Origin: an uncultured Bacteroidales bacterium
GTDB taxonomy: Bacteria; Bacteroidota; Bacteroidia; Bacteroidales; Paludibacteraceae
Assembly (NCBI GenBank): GCA_900318245.1
Contig: ONJT01000004.1
Span: forward strand, 6,940-70,939
DNA: 64,000 nucleotides
Direction: 5' to 3'
This document shows, in pieces, positions 13,176-58,743 of the stretch (positions within the stretch are counted from its first letter, which is position 1; every line of letters begins with the position of its first letter). The position numbers were made by a program, and so were the translations under genes. Below the pieces are notes generated by a model that saw only the letters and a program-made list of their open reading frames with translations, ran no database searches and was not told the origin of the DNA.

Positions 13176-13209
13176 GGGTGATCTTAGGCTGAGCAGCCTT
13201 TGATCACCC
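13176..13209 (+). terminator. nested perfect hairpin downstream of 12735..13139
   Basis: GGGTGATC-tt-AGGCT-gagc-AGCCT-tt-GATCACCC followed by TTTC. Confidence 0.5.
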
Positions 13210-13213
13210 TTTC

Positions 13214-13235
13214 AGCACCCATTGAGCACCCATTG
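13214..13235. repeat. tandem direct repeat AGCACCCATTG x2
   Basis: Exact 11-mer at 13214-13224 and again at 13225-13235. Confidence 0.9.
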
Positions 13236-13679: not shown

Positions 13680-13753
13680 GCGGTGTTAGCACATCGGTAG
13701 TGCATCGGCTTCCCAAGCCGAGGAGGCGGGTTCGATTCCCGTACACCGCTCCA
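13680..13753 (+). tRNA. tRNA-Gly (anticodon CCC), CCA encoded
   Basis: Hand-folded cloverleaf: acceptor GCGGTGT/ACACCGC, D arm GCAC/GTGC, anticodon stem TCGGC/GCCGA with loop TTCCCAA, T arm GCGGG-TTCGATT-CCCGT, discriminator T, then CCA. Confidence 0.93.
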
Positions 13754-14040
13754 AGCAGGCCGGTCTGTCGCGCCGAAAGGTGAGGAAAGTCCGGGCAGCA
13801 CAGAGCACCGCAGCGGTTAACGGCCGTCAGGCAGAAATGTTTGGTCACTGCTACAGAGACGAGTCGCCTTCGGGCGGGTGAAACGAGCACACTGTGGGCT
13901 GCAATTCCATGTAAACCGACGTCTGAGCGTTGCTCGCGCGAGTCGGAGGGTAGGAAGCGAGAGAGAGGCATGGTAACATGTTCTCCGAGATTAATGACAG
14001 ACGCCCGAAAGGGTACAGAACCCGGCTTACAGGCCTGCTG
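13754..14040 (+). ncRNA. rnpB: RNase P RNA, bacterial type A, compact (about 287 nt)
   Basis: P1 AGCAGGCC/GGCCTGCT, P2 GGTCTGTC/GACAGAC. Universal P4 strands GAGGAAAGTCCGGGC and ACAGAACCCGGCTTA. GGGTGAAA and GTAAAC motifs are in the specificity domain. Confidence 0.9.
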
Positions 14041-14057
14041 CCCCCTGCGGGGGAAAA
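14041..14057 (+). terminator. GC hairpin after rnpB (no U tract)
   Basis: CCCCC-TGC-GGGGG followed by AAAA. Confidence 0.35.
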
Positions 14058-14058
14058 C

Positions 14059-14095
14059 GTTAAACTGTTAAATCGTTAAACTGTTAACACGTTAA
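14059..14095 (+). repeat. (GTTAA-N3) x5 array, exact 8-nt period, abutting a start codon
   Basis: GTTAA at 14059, 14067, 14075, 14083 and 14091. The GTG start is at 14096. Confidence 0.9.
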
Positions 14096-15418
14096 GTGAA
14101 AAACACCAAATTTTCCCAAATAGCAGGATTTGTACGCTACGACATGTGGCGGAGGACATCGACGGAGATAGACACTTGGTACAAGCGTCTGGGATATATG
14201 GTGATGCGTACGATCGCGCTGGTGGTGCGCGGCTTCACGAGCAAAAACCTCAATGACCAGGCCAAAGCCCTCACCTACTCCCTTATCTTTGCGGTCGTAC
14301 CTATCCTCGCGATGATCTTCGCGGTAGCCAAGGGTTTCGGTGTGGACGATGTGATCGAGCAACAACTCAACGCATCATTCCTCGGCGAGACGAACATGGT
14401 TCCGACCATTATGACGATGGTCGATCGCTATCTGGAGACGGCGCAAGGCGGCCTATTCATCGGAATTGGTATTCTGATCTTGCTTTGGGCCATTTATTCG
14501 TTCTTCCAGTCCGTAGAGACCGCTTTCAACCGCATATGGAACGTGAAAAAATCGCGTTCTATCCTTCGTCAGGTGACCACTTATATCGCTATTGTAGTGC
14601 TGATGCCGGTGTTGATCGTTTGTTCGGCGGGTTTGAATATCTTCGTTCATTCGGCCGTAGAGAACGTCGTGCATGCGCATGTTCTACACGAGTTCCTGCA
14701 TGCTAACGGCGTGAAGTTTCTGCAATTTGTGATGTGCTGGTTGCTCTTCACGATCATGTATGTCGCTATCCCGAACACGAAAGTGCGTTTTCTGCCGGCC
14801 CTTATACCGGGTGTGCTGATGGGTACGCTGTTCCAGTTACTGCAAATGCTGTCCGTCTATTTGATCGCACTCTTAAGCCGCACGAGTATCGTGTACGGAG
14901 CGTTCGCGTCGATACCTATTCTGATGACGTGGCTGCAGTGGACAAGTCTGCTGATTTTGATCGGCGCAGAGATGAGTTATGCCATCCAGAACAACGAGGA
15001 GTTTGAGTACGAGCACGACCTGAATATGATGTCGCGCCGCTACAAAGACTTCATCATGCTCTACCTCTTATCTATTATAATCAAGCGTTTTGAGAACGAC
15101 GAAGCACCTCTCACGGCGCATGAACTTGCTATTCGCGACCATTTACCCATTCGCGTCGTCAATCAGTTATTAGGCCGAATGGTGGAGACCGGCGTGGTGA
15201 GAGAGGTGTATGTAGAGGGCGAAGAAGAGAAGACTTTCCAGCCTGCGCTCGACACACATAAGATCAGCATCGGTATGGTCATCGACCGTATTGACGCGCA
15301 GGGAGCAGAGGAGTTTTTGGCTTCACCGACGCCAGAGATGCAAGCGTTCTGGGAGCGGTATGTGGAGGTGAAGAAGGACCATACGACATTGGACGAAATT
15401 CTAATTACAGACATATGA
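14096..15418 (+). CDS. YihY/BrkB-family inner-membrane protein with a C-terminal winged-helix-like domain
   Basis: 440 aa. YihY core (KALTYSLIFAVVPILAMIFAV..., six TM segments). GTG start at 14096; the alternative ATG is at 14144. Confidence 0.8.
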   Translation: MKNTKFSQIAGFVRYDMWRRTSTEIDTWYKRLGYMVMRTIALVVRGFTSKNLNDQAKALTYSLIFAVVPILAMIFAVAKGFGVDDVIEQQLNASFLGETNMVPTIMTMVDRYLETAQGGLFIGIGILILLWAIYSFFQSVETAFNRIWNVKKSRSILRQVTTYIAIVVLMPVLIVCSAGLNIFVHSAVENVVHAHVLHEFLHANGVKFLQFVMCWLLFTIMYVAIPNTKVRFLPALIPGVLMGTLFQLLQMLSVYLIALLSRTSIVYGAFASIPILMTWLQWTSLLILIGAEMSYAIQNNEEFEYEHDLNMMSRRYKDFIMLYLLSIIIKRFENDEAPLTAHELAIRDHLPIRVVNQLLGRMVETGVVREVYVEGEEEKTFQPALDTHKISIGMVIDRIDAQGAEEFLASPTPEMQAFWERYVEVKKDHTTLDEILITDI

Positions 15419-30701: not shown

Positions 30702-31777
30702 TTTACGATTCCTTTTTCCAAATATTCGGCGAGGTTAAAGTGCTCGCGGGTCACTTTCTGCATGTCATGTTTTACCATGAGTTCTACCAACTCCTCGAAA
30801 CTCGTCTTCTGCGGGTTCCAGCCCAACTCGCGCTTGGCCTTACTCGGGTCGCCGAGCAGGTTCACCACATCCGTCGGACGGTAGAAATCCGGGCTGACGG
30901 CTACGACCACCTTACCGGTCTTGGCGTCAATACCTTTCTCGTCTACGCCCTGCCCTTCCCAGCGCAGCTCAATGCCCGCATGGTGGAAAGCGAGGGTCGC
31001 GAACTCGCGTACGGTGTGTTGCACGCCCGTAGCGATCACGAAATCCTCCGGCGTTGGATGCTGCAGGATGAGCCACATACACTCTACATAGTCTTTCGCA
31101 TATCCCCAGTCGCGCAGCGAGTCGAGGTTTCCGAGGTACAGGCAGTCCTGCTTACCCTGCGCGATGCGGGCAGCAGCCAGCGTGATCTTACGCGTCACAA
31201 AAGTCTCGCCACGGCGCTCACTCTCGTGGTTAAAGAGGATACCCGAGCAGCAGAACATATCGTATGCCTCGCGATACTCCTTGATGATCCAGTATCCGTA
31301 GAGTTTGGCTACGGCGTACGGACTATAGGGATGGAACGGTGTGGTCTCAGATTGCGGCACTTCCTCTACCTTGCCGTAGAGCTCAGACGTCGAAGCCTGA
31401 TAGATGCGGCAGGTCTTCTCGAGGTGGTTCGTACGCACGGCCTCCAGCACGCGCAGCACGCCTACCGCGTCCACGTCTGCCGTGAACTCAGGCGCGTCGA
31501 ACGACACCTGCACGTGACTCTGCGCCGCGAGGTTGTATATCTCGTCCGGCTGCACTTTGCCCACCAACTTCACCAGCGACATCGAGTCACTCATGTCTGC
31601 GTAATGTAAATGGAAATGCGGCATACCCTCAAGGTGCGCAATGCGCTCGCGAAAGTCCACCGAAGAGCGACGGATGATGCCGTGCACCTCATATCCCTTC
31701 TCCAACAAAAACTCCGACAGGTAACTTCCGTCCTGTCCCGTAACACCTGTTATTAATGCGATTTTTGCCATATTCAC
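30698..31777 (-). CDS. gmd: GDP-mannose 4,6-dehydratase
   Basis: [33 protein letters not shown]..., [20 protein letters not shown]. Confidence 0.95.
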
Positions 31778-35255: not shown

Positions 35256-37211
35256 TTACTTCGTCACCCTATCTACGGCGCGCAAAATGGGCTCAATCGT
35301 CGGAGCTTCACCTACGGCCTGAATGAGCCACTCTTTCGGCGTCAGGCGGCCAAGACGGTAAATACGCATATATTCATATGCGAAATCTTTCTGCGTCTTG
35401 CATTGCGCCAGGTGCTCCTCCAACTGGTACTGCACGATATGTCCCAGCGGATAGTTCGGCAGGTACATCGGTGCATTCACCATGTGGCTGTACACGGCCA
35501 GCAAGATACAGTCGTGTTCACCCAGCACCGGCTCGTAGTATGCATTCCACACGTCTTTGGCTATTTGCTGCGTCGCTTCGCAGAGCTCTTTCGGCGTAGC
35601 CTTCGGGTGCGCATAAATCCACTGCCACATACGCATATCGACGAGGCTCACACCCATGATCTCGTACATCGACCAGAACTGATCGAGAACTGCGTCATTG
35701 CTGATTGATGATTGATGATTGGTGATTTTAGCGCCCGGTAAGAGTTGCAGGTCGCGTTGTTGCCAAAGGAACGCGCTGGCCTCCGTATAGGCGGTGTTGG
35801 GCACGCCGGAGAGCATGTAATAGTCGATGAAATACATGTCGAGCACCTGCTCCACGCAGTGACCGAACTCATGCACAGCGATGTTATAGCCCTTGTAATC
35901 CATGCCGGAAGCAGGAATACGGGTGCGGAGCCGCGCATCTTCTTTGCGACCGAGGCATGGCCATGCGTGTCCTGAACCGCGGGCGGGTTCTACGACGATA
36001 TGATGGGCGATAGTGCGGGCATCTTCGCTATAGAAGCCCATGCTCGTCAGCAGTCGCCACATGTCTGCCGCAAACGCATTGGCGTCCGGATAGAGATCGC
36101 GGGTCTGTGCACTCAGCGCATCTTCGTCCAAGGCTGCACGGGCTTTGAAGCCGTCGTACCATATATCATACGGGCGCAAGTCCCTACCCAAGCGCTCGCG
36201 GATGACGGCCGCCACTTGCGCTACCTGCGGCGAACCTACCAAAGCTCTAAACAGGCTGTCTAACTCTGCAGCCGGAATCTCTACGCCTTCCTCGAAATTA
36301 CGGATGATACCCGTCGGCGCGGTCGGACAATACGGGTCGGCGGCAAAATACGCCTGCGCGATCTCGAGTATCCGCTCGTAGCGGGTGTAAGGCTCGGCTT
36401 CGGACCGGTCTGAATACGGCTTCCAGATATAGTCCTTGCCGTTGATAGCCGCCTGCGGGATTGTCTGATCGACGATGCGCTGCATGACCTGATAGATCAT
36501 CTCCTGCTTCTCCTGCCCGCCTTCTGCGCCATACAGCGCTTTCAGTTCGTCGCGCAGGTTCCAGTGGCTGAGCAGGATCTTGTCTTCCGGCCATAGCTGG
36601 CGATCGTCTTCCGTGCGAAGGTTGCCCATGTAGATATTATAGTCCGCGATATAGTTCTCGGCGTTGGCATTGGCCTGCGCCATGCGGGTATTGACCTCTG
36701 CCGGCACGCGCGTCGTGAACACGTCTCCCATGCGGGCGAAAGCCCACTCTTGGCGGGTCCAGTGCTTGCCCAGCGTGTTCTTCTCCTCGAGCGTGTAATG
36801 CGGGAAGTTAAGAATGGTCACGAAGGCGAGTTTGTTCGCGAACATATCGTCCGAGAAATGCGCCAGCGGACTGTAGCCGGAGAGGATCCAGTCCGGTGTC
36901 TGCGGCTCGGCGGCATTGGTCAACTGGGTCGGGCGCAGCAACTCTACCGTCAGCATGTCGGCCGACTGGAAGAGGTTCTCAAACGCCCTGCTGAGGGACT
37001 CAAAGAGCGCTACGCGCTCGCTGTCGGTCTTGCAGGTGTGGTCGGCAATAAACTGCTCCAACTCCTCCTGTGTACCGTCTGCCGGCGTCCAAAGGGCGCG
37101 CACTTGCTGTTCACCACGCGGATAGTCCATCGTCTCTGTCTTTTTTGCTGTGCATGCCGTCAGGCCTATCATCGCGCCGATCGCCATGCAGAATATTGTG
37201 TTATGTTTCAT
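35256..37211 (-). CDS. gluzincin-type zinc metallopeptidase lipoprotein (HEFGH)
   Basis: Lipobox MIGLTACTA. HExxH (VHEFGHCVEQ) with a downstream Glu (YTEASAF). 651 aa. Confidence 0.6.
   Translation of the reverse strand: MKHNTIFCMAIGAMIGLTACTAKKTETMDYPRGEQQVRALWTPADGTQEELEQFIADHTCKTDSERVALFESLSRAFENLFQSADMLTVELLRPTQLTNAAEPQTPDWILSGYSPLAHFSDDMFANKLAFVTILNFPHYTLEEKNTLGKHWTRQEWAFARMGDVFTTRVPAEVNTRMAQANANAENYIADYNIYMGNLRTEDDRQLWPEDKILLSHWNLRDELKALYGAEGGQEKQEMIYQVMQRIVDQTIPQAAINGKDYIWKPYSDRSEAEPYTRYERILEIAQAYFAADPYCPTAPTGIIRNFEEGVEIPAAELDSLFRALVGSPQVAQVAAVIRERLGRDLRPYDIWYDGFKARAALDEDALSAQTRDLYPDANAFAADMWRLLTSMGFYSEDARTIAHHIVVEPARGSGHAWPCLGRKEDARLRTRIPASGMDYKGYNIAVHEFGHCVEQVLDMYFIDYYMLSGVPNTAYTEASAFLWQQRDLQLLPGAKITNHQSSISNDAVLDQFWSMYEIMGVSLVDMRMWQWIYAHPKATPKELCEATQQIAKDVWNAYYEPVLGEHDCILLAVYSHMVNAPMYLPNYPLGHIVQYQLEEHLAQCKTQKDFAYEYMRIYRLGRLTPKEWLIQAVGEAPTIEPILRAVDRVTK
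35696..35730. repeat. 7-nt-period array CATTGCT GATTGAT GATTGAT GATTGGT GATTTTA inside the peptidase CDS
   Basis: ATTG at 35697, 35704, 35711 and 35718, then ATTT at 35725. Encodes ...KITNHQSSISND... on the minus strand. Confidence 0.85.
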
Positions 37212-42097: not shown

Positions 42098-42167
42098 TTG
42101 TGCTATTTGTGGCACATTTTGTGCTATAATTGTGCTACAAATATGCTACTTGTGCTAAAAGTGTGCT
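42098..42167. repeat. seven TGTGCTA boxes at about 11-bp phasing
   Basis: Boxes start at 42098, 42107 (TGTGGCA), 42119, 42130, 42141 (TATGCTA), 42150 and 42161. Confidence 0.9.
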
Positions 42168-42183
42168 ATTCGTAAAAAGGTAT

Positions 42184-51848: not shown

Positions 51849-53078
51849 ATGGCAAATACCCTTTTCGGACATAAGACACGTGCGCTCTTCCGCGGTCAAC
51901 GAGCGACCTTGGATGCGGAGCACCGGCCTATCTTAGAGGCCAACCGCGGCGCAGTATGGATTCATGCAGCGTCGGTGGGTGAGTTTGAGCAAGCGCGCCC
52001 GCTCATAGAGCGTCTGCGCCGCGAGCACCCCGACCGTAAGATCGTTGTGACCTTCTTTAGCCCTTCGGGCTATGAGGCGCGTAAGAACTACCCGCATGCG
52101 GATGCGGTGCTCTATCTGCCTTTCGCTACGCGGCGTAAGGCCAAGCGCTTCTTAGAGGGCTTTCAGCCCTCGATGGCGATCTTCGTGAAGTATGAGTTCT
52201 GGCCGGCGTACCTCAAGGAGTTGAAGAAACGCGGTATTCCGACCTATAGTATCTCGGCGATCTTCCGCCCCACCCAACGGTTCTTCCATTGGTACGGCTC
52301 GGGCGCACTGAAACTGCTGCACTGCTTCACGCATATCTTCGTGCAAGACGAGGCTTCGCGCCGGTTGTTGGCGGAGCACGGTGTGCATGAGTGTTCGGTG
52401 GCGGGTGATACCCGTTTTGATCGCGTGAACGAAGTGCTGGCGGCTACGCGCGAGCGCCAGGACGCGCGCCTGTTGCCTATCGCCCAGTTCGTAGAAGAAG
52501 CACCGCAGGTGGTGGTAGCCGGTAGTACATGGCCGGAAGATGAAGTACTCTTAGAAGAGTACATTGAAGATTGTAGATTGAAGAATGAAGAATGTGGTGT
52601 GAAGCTTATTCTGGTGCCGCATGAGATCAATGAGGAGCACCTGCACGATATCTTCCAGCGTTTCAAGGGCCGTTTTGTCAAGTTCAGCGACATCAGCGCC
52701 ATGCCGTCGAATCTCAGCCGCGTGAACATCTTACGCCGCGCAGACGTGCTGGTGATCGACACCATCGGCTTGCTGTCGACGATCTATCAGTTCGGTCAGG
52801 TGGCCTATATCGGTGGCGGTTTTGGCGAAGGTATCCATAACACGATTGAGGCAGCCGTATATGGTGTGCCGGTGGTGTTCGGGCCTAACTACAAGCATTT
52901 TCGCGAGGCGCAAGGACTGATCGACGCCGGCGCGGGGCGCAGCATCAAAAACTATAAGGAATTAGAGGCGGCGTTGGCGACCGCCCTTGAGCAACATCAG
53001 ACAATAGGCGCTAAGGCCGCGGAGTATGTACAGTCCGAGTTAGGCGCAACAGAGAAAATTTATAAAGCATTATTCTAA
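51849..53078 (+). CDS. waaA: 3-deoxy-D-manno-octulosonic acid (Kdo) transferase
   Basis: [48 protein letters not shown]. Start trimmed to MANTLF behind TACTTTTG. Confidence 0.88.
52563..52604. repeat. six in-frame heptamers ATTGAAG ATTGTAG ATTGAAG AATGAAG AATGTGG TGTGAAG inside waaA
   Basis: Exact 7-nt period over 42 nt, starting on a codon boundary. Encodes [14 protein letters not shown]. Confidence 0.85.
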
Positions 53079-56880: not shown

Positions 56881-57405
56881 ATGGCTTTACTAAAGACCAT
56901 TAATAGAAACGGCGAGATCCTTACCCCGCGCATCGCGGATGACGTGTTCATGGCAGAGAATGCCACCGTCGTCGGCGATGTGACGGTGGGTGAAGGCTCG
57001 AGTCTGTGGTTCAACAGCGTGCTGCGCGGCGACGTGAACACCATCGTGGTCGGCAAGCACTGTAACATCCAAGATGGCGCGGTGTTGCATACGCTCTATC
57101 AGAAATCGACGATTCGTCTGGGCGATTATGTGTCCGTAGGACACAACGTGACGATTCACGGCGCGGATGTCGATGACTACGCCCTGATAGGTATGGGTGC
57201 TACCCTACTCGACGGAGCGCATGTAGGTCAGGGCGCGATAGTAGCTGCCGGTGCATTGGTGCTCTCGAACACACAGATAGGTCCCAACGAGATCTGGGGC
57301 GGTGTGCCGGCGAAATTCATCAAGAAAGCCGAACCCGCACAGACGCAGGAGATCAATCAAAAAATAGCCAATAACTACGCCATGTATTCCACGTGGTACC
57401 GTTAA
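56881..57405 (+). CDS. gamma carbonic anhydrase-family / hexapeptide-repeat protein
   Basis: FMAENATVVGDVTVGEGSSLWFNSVLRGDVN...IQDGAVLH left-handed beta-helix repeats. Confidence 0.85.
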   Translation: MALLKTINRNGEILTPRIADDVFMAENATVVGDVTVGEGSSLWFNSVLRGDVNTIVVGKHCNIQDGAVLHTLYQKSTIRLGDYVSVGHNVTIHGADVDDYALIGMGATLLDGAHVGQGAIVAAGALVLSNTQIGPNEIWGGVPAKFIKKAEPAQTQEINQKIANNYAMYSTWYR

Positions 57406-57438
57406 TGGGTTAAATTGTTAAAACGTTAAATCGTTATT
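57401..57438 (+). repeat. (GTTAA-N3) x5 array, exact 8-nt period, abutting the pyrH start codon
   Basis: GTTAA at 57401, 57409, 57417 and 57425, GTTAT at 57433, ATG at 57439. Confidence 0.9.
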
Positions 57439-58143
57439 ATGTATAAACGCATTTTACTGAAACTCTCCGGTGAGAGTCTTGCCGGAGAAAGCAAACAAGG
57501 CATCGACACCGAGCGCTTGAGCCAATACGCCGAGCAGGTGAAGGCCATCGCGCAGCGCGGTGTACAGATAGGCATCGTGATAGGAGGCGGAAATATCTTC
57601 CGCGGCTTATCGGGTGCACAGCGCGGTTTTGATCGCGTCAAAGGTGACCACATGGGCATGTTAGCGACGGTCATTAACGCTTTAGCGCTACAGTCCGCCC
57701 TCGAAGCCATCGGTCAGCCCGTGCGTGTACTGACATCCATCCGCATGGAGCCTATCGGAGACTTCTACAGCCCCGCGAAAGCTATCCGTCTGTTGGAGAA
57801 AGGCAATGTAGTGATTCTCGCCGGAGGCACCGGTGCACCCTACTTCACTACCGACACCGGTTCGAGTCTGCGTGCGCTGGAGATCAAAGCCGACGTGATG
57901 CTCAAAGGTACGCGTGTGGACGGCATCTACACCGCCGACCCGGAGAAAGACCCGAAAGCCACGAAGTTCGACGAGATCACGTATGACGAAGTCATCCGCC
58001 GCGGACTGAAGGTGATGGACCTCACCGCTACGGCGATGGCCAAAGAAAACGGCCTGCCGATCTATGTGTTCAACATGGATGAGTTAGGCAACCTCGCGCG
58101 CGTCATCGACGGCGAGAAAATTGGAACACTTGTAACCCCCTAA
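57439..58143 (+). CDS. pyrH: UMP kinase
   Basis: [38 protein letters not shown]. Confidence 0.95.
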
Positions 58144-58715: not shown

Positions 58716-58743
58716 CATTGCTAATTGCGAATTGGTAATTGGT
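58716..58743 (+). repeat. four heptamers CATTGCT AATTGCG AATTGGT AATTGGT ending on the rsgA start
   Basis: ATTG at 58717, 58724, 58731 and 58738. The GTG at 58742 overlaps the last unit. Confidence 0.85.

Follow-up and report, generated by a model that had tools for sequence, protein, structure and literature searches.

We analyzed a 64,000-nucleotide (nt) stretch, referred to here as the window, from an uncultured Bacteroidales bacterium of the family Paludibacteraceae (GenBank assembly GCA_900318245.1, contig ONJT01000004.1, positions 6,940 to 70,939 of the forward strand). In the window, a tandem array of GTTAA boxes lies between rnpB, which encodes the RNase P RNA, and the start codon of a yihY/BrkB-family gene. 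This array is probably tolerated tandem-repeat DNA rather than a conserved signal, a reading to which we assign a probability of roughly 0.55. The reading is based on the dispersed family to which the array belongs, on the gain, loss, and replacement of arrays at gene junctions, and on the amplification of different words in different species. The anatomy of the array, its family, its transcription, its turnover between species, and the lack of any measurable advantage for the start region were all demonstrated and are described below.

Anatomy of the arrays at yihY and pyrH

A preceding reading of the DNA letters (the sequence-only reading) had described five GTTAA boxes at an exact 8-nt period ending on the yihY start codon, and our own read of the sequence confirmed this. 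GTTAA begins at positions 14059, 14067, 14075, 14083, and 14091 (14059-14095), and the units run in the order GTTAAACT GTTAAATC GTTAAACT GTTAACAC GTTAA, followed by GTG at 14096. This GTG opens a 440-amino-acid open reading frame (ORF), and the triplet before it (14093-14095) is an in-frame TAA contributed by the last box. Tandem Repeats Finder (TRF) assigned a score of 70 to a 16-nt period (14054-14095, 2.6 copies, 88% match) and only 46 to an 8-nt period, and the AAAAC preceding the first GTTAA box was therefore counted as part of it. The full array is thus 42 nt long (14054-14095), its 16-nt unit being GTTAAACT+GTTAAATC, and it carries TAA in all three frames of both strands. The features of the two array-bearing regions in the window are as follows.

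13680-13750: tRNA (Rfam)
13752-14045, + strand: rnpB, the upstream neighbor of the array (Rfam RF00010, 158 bits); RNA reads stop at ~14025-14035
14041-14053, + strand: G+C-rich hairpin CCCCC-TGC-GGGGG between rnpB and the array (sequence, fold, and alignment of relatives)
14054-14095, + strand: tandem array 1, with 2.6 copies of the 16-nt unit or, counted in 8-nt subunits (AAAYYGTT / GTTAAAYY), 5.25 copies
14096-15418, + strand: yihY/BrkB-family membrane protein gene, its GTG lying within the variable triplet of array unit 5
56881-57405, + strand: upstream ORF of 174 amino acids, putatively hexapeptide-repeat or gamma-carbonic-anhydrase-like as judged from its sequence, no family search having been run
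57401-57437, + strand: tandem array 2, GTTAATGG GTTAAATT GTTAAAAC GTTAAATC GTTAT
57439-58143, + strand: pyrH (UMP kinase) gene, its ATG beginning at position 7 of the degenerate fifth unit

Rfam recognized only the tRNA and rnpB in the window and no known RNA family at the array. In the alignment of relatives, the hairpin at 14041-14053 keeps its position, but its sequence has changed. Within rnpB itself, at ~13980, rnpB variants of related organisms, from run X26 and a further locus, have a heptamer array (GTGTACA-like or GTACGAT-like) in a variable helix of RNase P RNA.

The sequence-only reading had also reported a second array upstream of pyrH with the same box, period, copy number, and position relative to the start codon. 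The array is real, has the same period, and stands at a start codon, but it consists of four exact GTTAA boxes plus GTTAT, and its register is different: the yihY GTG occupies unit positions 6-8, whereas the pyrH ATG begins at position 7. The stop codon of the 174-amino-acid ORF is the TAA of the first GTTAA box, and array 2 forms the entire spacer from this stop to pyrH, ending 1 nt before the ATG. A pattern of three GTTAA boxes gave five overlapping matches in the window, located only at the yihY array and at 57401-57429, and none in 100 shuffles. Downstream of pyrH, at 58716-58743, a heptamer array (CATTGCT AATTGCG AATTGGT AATTGGT) runs from the TAA of a frr-like gene into the next start and is wedged in the same way as the GTTAA arrays.

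A dispersed repeat family of rumen Paludibacteraceae

The search of the genome and its relatives for further arrays, which the sequence-only reading had proposed, uncovered a family. The source assembly (2.26 Mb, 50% G+C, 56 contigs) contains six arrays with at least four exact GTTAA boxes and approximately five weaker ones. Exact GTTAA runs at period 8 numbered 12 for length 2, none for length 3, four for length 4, and two for length 5. A preferred array length was considered because three-box runs are missing here, but the counts imply ~15 three-box arrays in the related genome G003, and no optimum can be claimed. An unbiased scan, in which any 5-mer recurring four times at a fixed period was accepted, returned 18 period-8 arrays, seven of which were GTTAA, with the conserved columns always the same; shuffled sequence returned none. 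Among 41 genomes (25 of the genus and 16 from other families of the order), 15 had arrays of at least three boxes. The 26-mer core AACGTTAAACTGTTAAATCGTTAAAC, with at most two mismatches, was found in 39 of 201 genus genomes, often at several unrelated, non-orthologous loci. The DNA under study is itself present in bovine and other gut metagenome runs. These results show that the arrays are a lineage-specific dispersed repeat family of uncultured rumen Paludibacteraceae.

Over 27 arrays from four genomes, the unit is GTTAA-A-Y-Y, with A at position 6 in 84% and with ATT, ACT, ATC, and AAC as the commonest tails. The dominant form in the wider sample is the 16-nt GTTAAACT+GTTAAATC, repeated two to three times and reaching up to 13 subunits; unit numbers range from 3 to 13 across relatives, and arrays have 4-7 boxes. 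Since one 16-nt consensus dominates, the appearance of a conserved core with a free spacer is largely inherited and does not reflect independent selection at each locus. The higher-order unit and the differences in unit number between species fit the slippage-type origin that the sequence-only reading had offered as one possibility.

At the borders of the arrays, no conserved termini, inverted repeats, or obvious target duplications were found; the flanks share nothing. Pairs of filled and empty sites showed no obvious target-site duplication, the junctions being highly diverged. Five exact copies in genome G174, a candidate case of independent mobility, proved to be paralogous gene cassettes. 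A composite element made of hairpin and array was also rejected, as an upstream hairpin stands beside 17 of the 27 arrays and 103 of 200 random positions, a difference that is not significant.

Position and orientation of the arrays

Across four genomes, 24 arrays were in sense orientation, 3 were antisense, and 4 were in other contexts, so that the family does show a bias toward start codons and the sense strand. In the three relatives (21 loci), 16 arrays were in sense and right before a start codon, 2 were reversed, and 3 lay in 3' or unclear contexts; the source genome has one copy in a convergent gap and one reversed. The start codon typically lies 0-11 nt past the last box or is formed from it (GTTATG; A7-T8 plus G1 of the next unit), and the upstream stop falls within the array at four of eight loci of the source genome. 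Several of the relatives' arrays lie downstream of a TAnnTTTG promoter box and are thus 5' leaders. The genes downstream include yihY, pyrH, lepB (signal peptidase I), rpoN (sigma-54), hypA, a STAS-domain gene, and a lipoprotein gene whose ATG and first codons (MVKGLK) are within the array. These genes are unrelated and mostly housekeeping, and a common regulon was rejected.

The proximity to start codons was then set against the sizes of the gaps between genes, using our own gene calls (1,753 genes). An array of period 7, 8, 10, or 11 nt is contained in 127 of 1,417 co-directional gaps. The median gap is 56 nt with an array versus 12 nt without, and 17 nt are left once the array is subtracted. 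The median offset of the array's first base from the stop codon is -1 nt, and that of its last base from the start codon is 10 nt. Because they touch the upstream stop as closely as the start, ending on a start codon mostly amounts to filling a tiny spacer. The closeness of the arrays to start codons is thus largely a by-product. The GTTAA arrays are located outside reading frames, so that the number of units shifts no frame.

Among 79 arrays of 7-8-nt period, the G-rich strand coincided with the sense strand of the gene in 70% of cases and with the strand of positive GC skew in 76%. Since orientation tracks GC skew at least as well as gene direction, the sense bias of the 7-8-nt arrays may be replication-linked.

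Turnover of arrays between species

The synteny of rnpB and yihY is kept across the genus, but the spacer between them is not. The closest relative, RGIG3390, whose YihY is 97% identical in protein and 93% in nucleotide sequence, lacks an array and begins yihY with ATG (MKKISQ). RUG644 shares the array of the source genome, with the fifth box mutated to GTTTA; its yihY coding sequence is a mosaic, with 95% identity in the first 200 nt versus ~80% in the next 600 nt, which suggests recombination. In RUG11932, the yihY leader reads GTTAAACT GTTAAATC GTTAAACC GTTAA, then GTG, and nearly every base of the array is preserved. In other species, the rnpB-yihY spacer is occupied by (RTTAGCGA)9, (AGATTTGA)11, ATTTGAR x4, GATTTNN, CTATAGAGA, or (GAGRAGAT)4 + (CAACTNNN)7, and further species have only 10-20 nt. 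Alleles of yihY with an array start at GTG (VKNT-KFSQ), whereas those without an array start at ATG (MKK[I/F]SQ); former leader bases appear to have been turned into codons once the ATG was lost.

A comparable picture was obtained at other junctions. The pyrH spacer is 4-6 nt in several relatives and consists of unrelated 7-, 8-, or 16-nt arrays in others. The pyrH leaders of genomes G073, G061, G023, and G069 have GTTAA boxes interleaved with two small hairpins. These hairpins keep their position, and their stems differ by species (GTTTTTAT..ATAAAAAC versus GTCGC..GCGAC). For 18 arrays of relatives with an orthologous gene in the source genome, the spacer in the source genome is usually short and array-less, and many orthologues have spacers of 0-15 nt. 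The groES-groEL spacer holds a heptamer array (TTGAAGA / TTTAAGA; contig C38) in the source genome versus a GTTAA octamer array in G023. The arrays of the source genome at rpoN, at the STAS-domain gene, and at the gene at C12:67959 recur in G185, G054, and G174 with other unit numbers or variants.

Different words have been amplified in different genomes. The word (RTTAGCGA)n gave 59 matches in G063 and almost none in ten other genomes, and (GATTTGAR)n gave 100 matches in G072, 47 in G003, and 0-4 elsewhere. In G032, which belongs to another family of the order, more than 100 matches of perfect (GTTAAATT)n were found, often as inverted pairs and often at contig ends. The inverted pairs of (GTTAAATT)n and (GTTAAATG)n in this genome flank 30-130 nt of AT-rich intergenic DNA and would form long hairpins; with many of them at contig ends, they break the assembly.

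Transcription, length stability, and start regions

We examined whether the yihY array lies within a transcript, as the sequence-only reading had asked. In rumen metatranscriptomes, the depth over rnpB is in the thousands and collapses past ~14035, with adapter following at 14025-14035. An RNA-derived contig (run X25) covers 14015-14110 without mismatch, linking the 3' end of rnpB to yihY across the entire array, and further RNA contigs span 14081-14272. The RNA depth over the array equals that over the body of yihY, although such libraries may contain DNA carry-over. The array is transcribed as part of the yihY leader, with the same reservation as to carry-over. No RNA contigs covered the pyrH junction in three metatranscriptomes, which is uninformative either way.

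No length variants of the yihY array were detected in the contigs of four DNA runs from different studies, assembled contigs being liable to hide minority variants, and a hypervariable locus is improbable on this basis. The array was unchanged in length in a 10.6-kb DNA contig with 3 substitutions over 401 nt (window 13900-14300). Likewise, the pyrH array was untouched in a strain contig with 11 substitutions over 351 nt (window 57250-57600).

Translation initiation in Bacteroidota is reported to be independent of the Shine-Dalgarno (SD) sequence and to be enhanced by an A-rich initiation region, with A enriched at -3, -6, and -12 to -14 (Baez et al. 2019). The SD-less start regions assumed in the sequence-only reading are present in the source genome and are A-rich, with A peaks at -3, -6, and -12 to -14, depletion of G, and GGAG in 5% of leaders. 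On an initiation-region score built from the source genome's own start regions, 20 GTTAA-led genes reached 3.78 versus a genome mean of 3.34 (standard deviation, 4.3), and reversal of the array in silico gave 3.27 (Wilcoxon p=0.28). By this score, array-led genes are average and turning the array around makes no significant difference, and a better initiation context was therefore rejected. Start regions with an array of any kind in front fold at -6.5 versus -8.2 kcal/mol, a difference fully explained by GC content, and the five GTTAA-led start regions are slightly more folded than expected from GC. The arrays alone fold at -3.8 and -4.4 kcal/mol (z = +0.9 and +0.2) and have no significant structure. 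An advantage through an unstructured leader was rejected, since GC explains the folding energy. We found no sign that the arrays improve the initiation context and no evidence of anything reading the word GTTAA. The translation-initiation platform put forward in the sequence-only reading is not supported in view of these average scores, the null effect of reversal, and folding as in GC-matched leaders, and in view of the array-less orthologues and the unrelated octamers of sister species.

Other repeats in the source genome

The GTTAA family is part of a larger repeat population. TRF returned 335 strong non-redundant arrays in the source genome, with n = 174, 56, 31, and 43 for periods 7, 8, 9, and 11, respectively. 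The phased-5-mer scan returned 115, 18, 21, and 24 arrays for the same periods and none in shuffles. The sense strand of arrays in co-directional gaps is C-poor (8-10% C). Approximately 95 of the 174 heptamer arrays are within called genes, where roughly half of all heptamer arrays are translated in frame as lineage-specific insertions in loops. In the gene for the CCA-adding enzyme (C8:30014-31486), two in-frame (GTGAAAG)n arrays (C8:31025-31057 and 31205-31240) encode VKGERLKVKGER. Every third unit there is GTTAAAG, by which an in-frame TGA is avoided. Both arrays are lineage-specific insertions, of 10 and 13 residues, and are absent from most of 13 aligned genus orthologues. Loss of mismatch repair was rejected as a cause of repeat instability on the evidence of MutL, the one gene examined, which is intact here and in 24 of 25 genomes searched.

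Other arrays were noted in passing. In the window, heptamer arrays within called genes are found at 35697-35727 (ATTGATG x4.4) and 52563-52591 (ATTGAAG x4.1), and intergenic 11-nt-period arrays at 13190-13235 (TGAGCACCCTT x4.2) and 42119-42169 (TTGTGCTATAA x4.8). Elsewhere in the genome, intergenic arrays with periods of 8 and 10 nt have an invariant CTAGG / CCTAGG core and fully variable spacers (C19:32306-32350, C19:32568-32602, C12:63015-63052, C24:56441-56469, and C28:68581-68615), and there are several 11-nt families, such as ACTTATnnCGY at C21:149234, C22:45679, and C42:13294. The CTAGG-core and 11-nt-family arrays look more like phased binding sites than slippage repeats.

Discussion

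If the yihY array is tolerated repeat DNA, the family would have originated by slippage and copying and would be close to neutral. Arrays would gain and lose 8- or 16-nt steps, with unit variants common to several loci, comparable to a satellite library on a small scale. Because each GTTAA contains TAA on either strand and a period of 8 is not divisible by 3, an array closes all six frames and would persist only between genes, surviving where it does no harm. In a compact genome, arrays would become wedged from a stop codon to the next start, the upstream protein ending at the first in-frame TAA and the downstream start lying at or just after the last unit. The visible effects are structural: the array lengthens a spacer of ~10-15 nt to ~40-55 nt. 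The arrays also supply boundary codons, namely the stop of the pyrH neighbor and the yihY GTG that replaces the ATG of array-less alleles.

Several observations weigh against this reading, and four of them (the sense bias, the near-identity in RUG11932, the recurrent junctions, and the stable copy number) keep a functional reading alive. The 24:3 sense bias exceeds gene-strand bias alone, the start-region score does not account for it, and nothing was found that explains the orientation bias by composition. The RUG11932 array is near-identical even though third-codon identity in yihY is 52% (saturated) and the hairpin has changed, suggesting constraint or a very localized transfer of sequence. 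Several species have arrays at the same loci (rpoN, the STAS-domain gene, pyrH, and rlmN/LytTR). Four metagenomes showed no length variants, and of 67 pairs of neighboring 8-nt units only 2 match exactly, both unlike a freely slipping microsatellite. Finally, the reading offers no route by which a 26-40-nt word reaches new loci.

Functional readings can draw on much of this evidence. A lineage-specific RNA-binding protein or antisense small RNA might bind phased GUUAAAYY and control the translation or stability of dispersed mRNAs, each species' word matching its reader. Such a sequence-specific RNA platform would account for the invariant GTTAA(A) core, the strict 8-nt phasing with two variable positions, the sense bias, and the species-specific words at dozens of loci; it also fits an array that is found in an RNA contig and is predicted to be unstructured, and hence would be accessible, and that is retained in RUG11932 at saturating divergence and at several orthologous loci with a copy number stable between strains. 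We nevertheless consider it unlikely: no candidate reader was identified (no search for a binding protein was made), the downstream genes have no shared theme, the closest relative is array-less at yihY as are many relatives at pyrH, some copies lie in 3' regions or convergent gaps, and the "variable" positions largely follow one 16-nt consensus, so that the conservation is partly inherited. The word itself could instead be irrelevant and only a spacer selected, any unstructured, A/U-rich, C-poor stretch serving as a standby or insulating site that uncouples the start from an upstream hairpin or a terminating ribosome. The A-rich, SD-less start signature (GGAG in 5%), the C-poor sense strands without a fold, and the filling of the rnpB-yihY and groES-groEL spacers by different arrays in each species, as if some spacer were favored, are in keeping with such a generic aid. 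Array-led start regions are, however, average and indifferent to in-silico reversal, their folding is no weaker than that of GC-matched leaders (and slightly stronger in the GTTAA-led ones), many orthologues manage with spacers of 0-15 nt, and the same repeat families also occur within coding sequences; we regard a generic translation aid as quite unlikely. A broader proposal, speculative and distinctly improbable, is that every species of this genus maintains a private octamer word across dozens of mRNA leaders (GTTAAAYY here, RTTAGCGA in G063, GATTTGAR in G072 and G003), read by a fast-co-evolving RNA-binding protein or small RNA as a lineage-private post-transcriptional regulon spanning housekeeping genes, or that a dedicated copying enzyme writes the word into junctions.

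Readings at the DNA level fare less well. A small non-autonomous mobile element of ~40 nt, inserted by a transposase or a copier of the reverse-transcriptase type with a preference for TAA/TTAA-rich junctions, could explain an identical 26-mer at many unrelated loci (39 of 201 genomes), the insertion-like footprint of arrays in gaps, their patchy distribution, and the species-specific bursts of other words. It is very unlikely, given array borders without conserved termini, inverted repeats, or obvious target duplications, lengths that vary by whole units, and the origin of the five G174 copies as paralogous gene cassettes; a gene for an associated enzyme did not come to light, though no systematic search for one was made. 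Unlike miniature inverted-repeat transposable elements or elements resembling repetitive extragenic palindromes, the GTTAA arrays have no terminal inverted repeats or palindromic hairpin. Least probable, and to our minds remote, is an operator array in which a protein of the ribbon-helix-helix or a similar type would coat the 8-bp repeats and regulate transcription in the manner of MetJ, ParG, and omega. MetJ met-boxes and ParG parH boxes are 8-bp tandem operators and omega uses heptads, with two to ~twelve direct boxes of 7-8 bp, and such arrays stand at promoters or centromere-like sites beside the cognate gene and define a regulon. The sequence-only reading had taken the 8-nt period to speak against same-face DNA binding; in view of these operators the argument is weak. 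The GTTAA arrays resemble them in having tandem 8-bp boxes, four to seven per array, at a period far from the DNA helical repeat, and some lie just downstream of a TAnnTTTG promoter box. Most copies, however, are in promoter-less, operon-internal junctions that overlap stop and start codons of unrelated housekeeping genes, the genes suggest no regulon, sister species do not share the word, and the strong bias toward the mRNA sense would be unnecessary for a roadblock.

Among known repeats, the arrays may be compared with several classes. Cyanobacterial short tandemly repeated repetitive (STRR) sequences are heptamer repeats. Unlike slippage products of the STRR kind, the GTTAA units are imperfect at 8 nt (2 of 67 pairs identical), with identity at the 16-nt level (88%). 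Phase-variable contingency repeats vary in unit number within populations and lie in or before surface, virulence, and defense genes, whose expression is switched by such changes in number, whereas the GTTAA arrays are mostly before housekeeping genes. The closest resemblance in arrangement is to the direct repeats of the heptamer TAACTGA that MacGregor (2015, PMC4679880) described in marine Beggiatoaceae, in some cyanobacteria, and in five Bacteroidetes. Those repeats have 2-6 copies per set and are mostly intergenic and forward, the largest class ending 1 nt ahead of the start codon; some reach back into the end of the preceding ORF, and they have no downstream theme, a patchy spread, and no assigned function (PMC4679880). 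The GTTAA arrays are likewise tandem, their period is not divisible by 3, and their unit contains stop triplets; they are mostly intergenic, in sense, and near a start codon, some overlap the upstream ORF end, and they lack a downstream functional theme and are patchy (15 of 41 and 39 of 201 genomes). They differ in being a GTTAAAYY octamer in a 16-nt higher-order unit rather than a perfect heptamer, with only TAA in common; neighboring units hardly ever match exactly, sister species have different words, and the carriers are rumen Paludibacteraceae.

Long simple sequence repeats with units of 5-11 nt (Mrazek et al. 2007), as they are summarized in PMC4679880, and STRR sequences share with the arrays described here a dispersed, intergenic distribution of 7-8-nt units over many loci, an excess of period 7 (here also 8), and lineage-specific units. 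In contrast to them, the density here is very high, with 335 strong arrays in 2.26 Mb, and approximately half of the heptamer arrays are in frame in genes. The heptameric repeats of Xanthomonas and Nostoc, as outlined by Rehm et al. (2015, PMC4692102), also show a lineage-restricted, genome-wide excess of intergenic repeats with a 7-nt period; as described there, they are G-rich and quadruplex-forming, whereas the GTTAA arrays are A/T-rich and predicted to be unstructured. From these comparisons, we place the GTTAA arrays, as a new member, among repeats of the TAACTGA / STRR type, which are known but little understood.

Short repeats before start codons with a period that is not a multiple of 3 form a class known from Beggiatoaceae, cyanobacteria, and Xanthomonas. 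The present genus offers a natural experiment on this class, with hundreds of genomes, junctions with and without arrays, species-specific words, and in-frame copies in essential enzymes, and it could decide between repeats of this kind as neutral by-products of replication and as a means by which SD-less bacteria in general build leaders. Because the arrays move stop and start codons, as in the change of the yihY start from ATG to GTG, and break assemblies, they matter for the annotation of rumen metagenome-assembled genomes.

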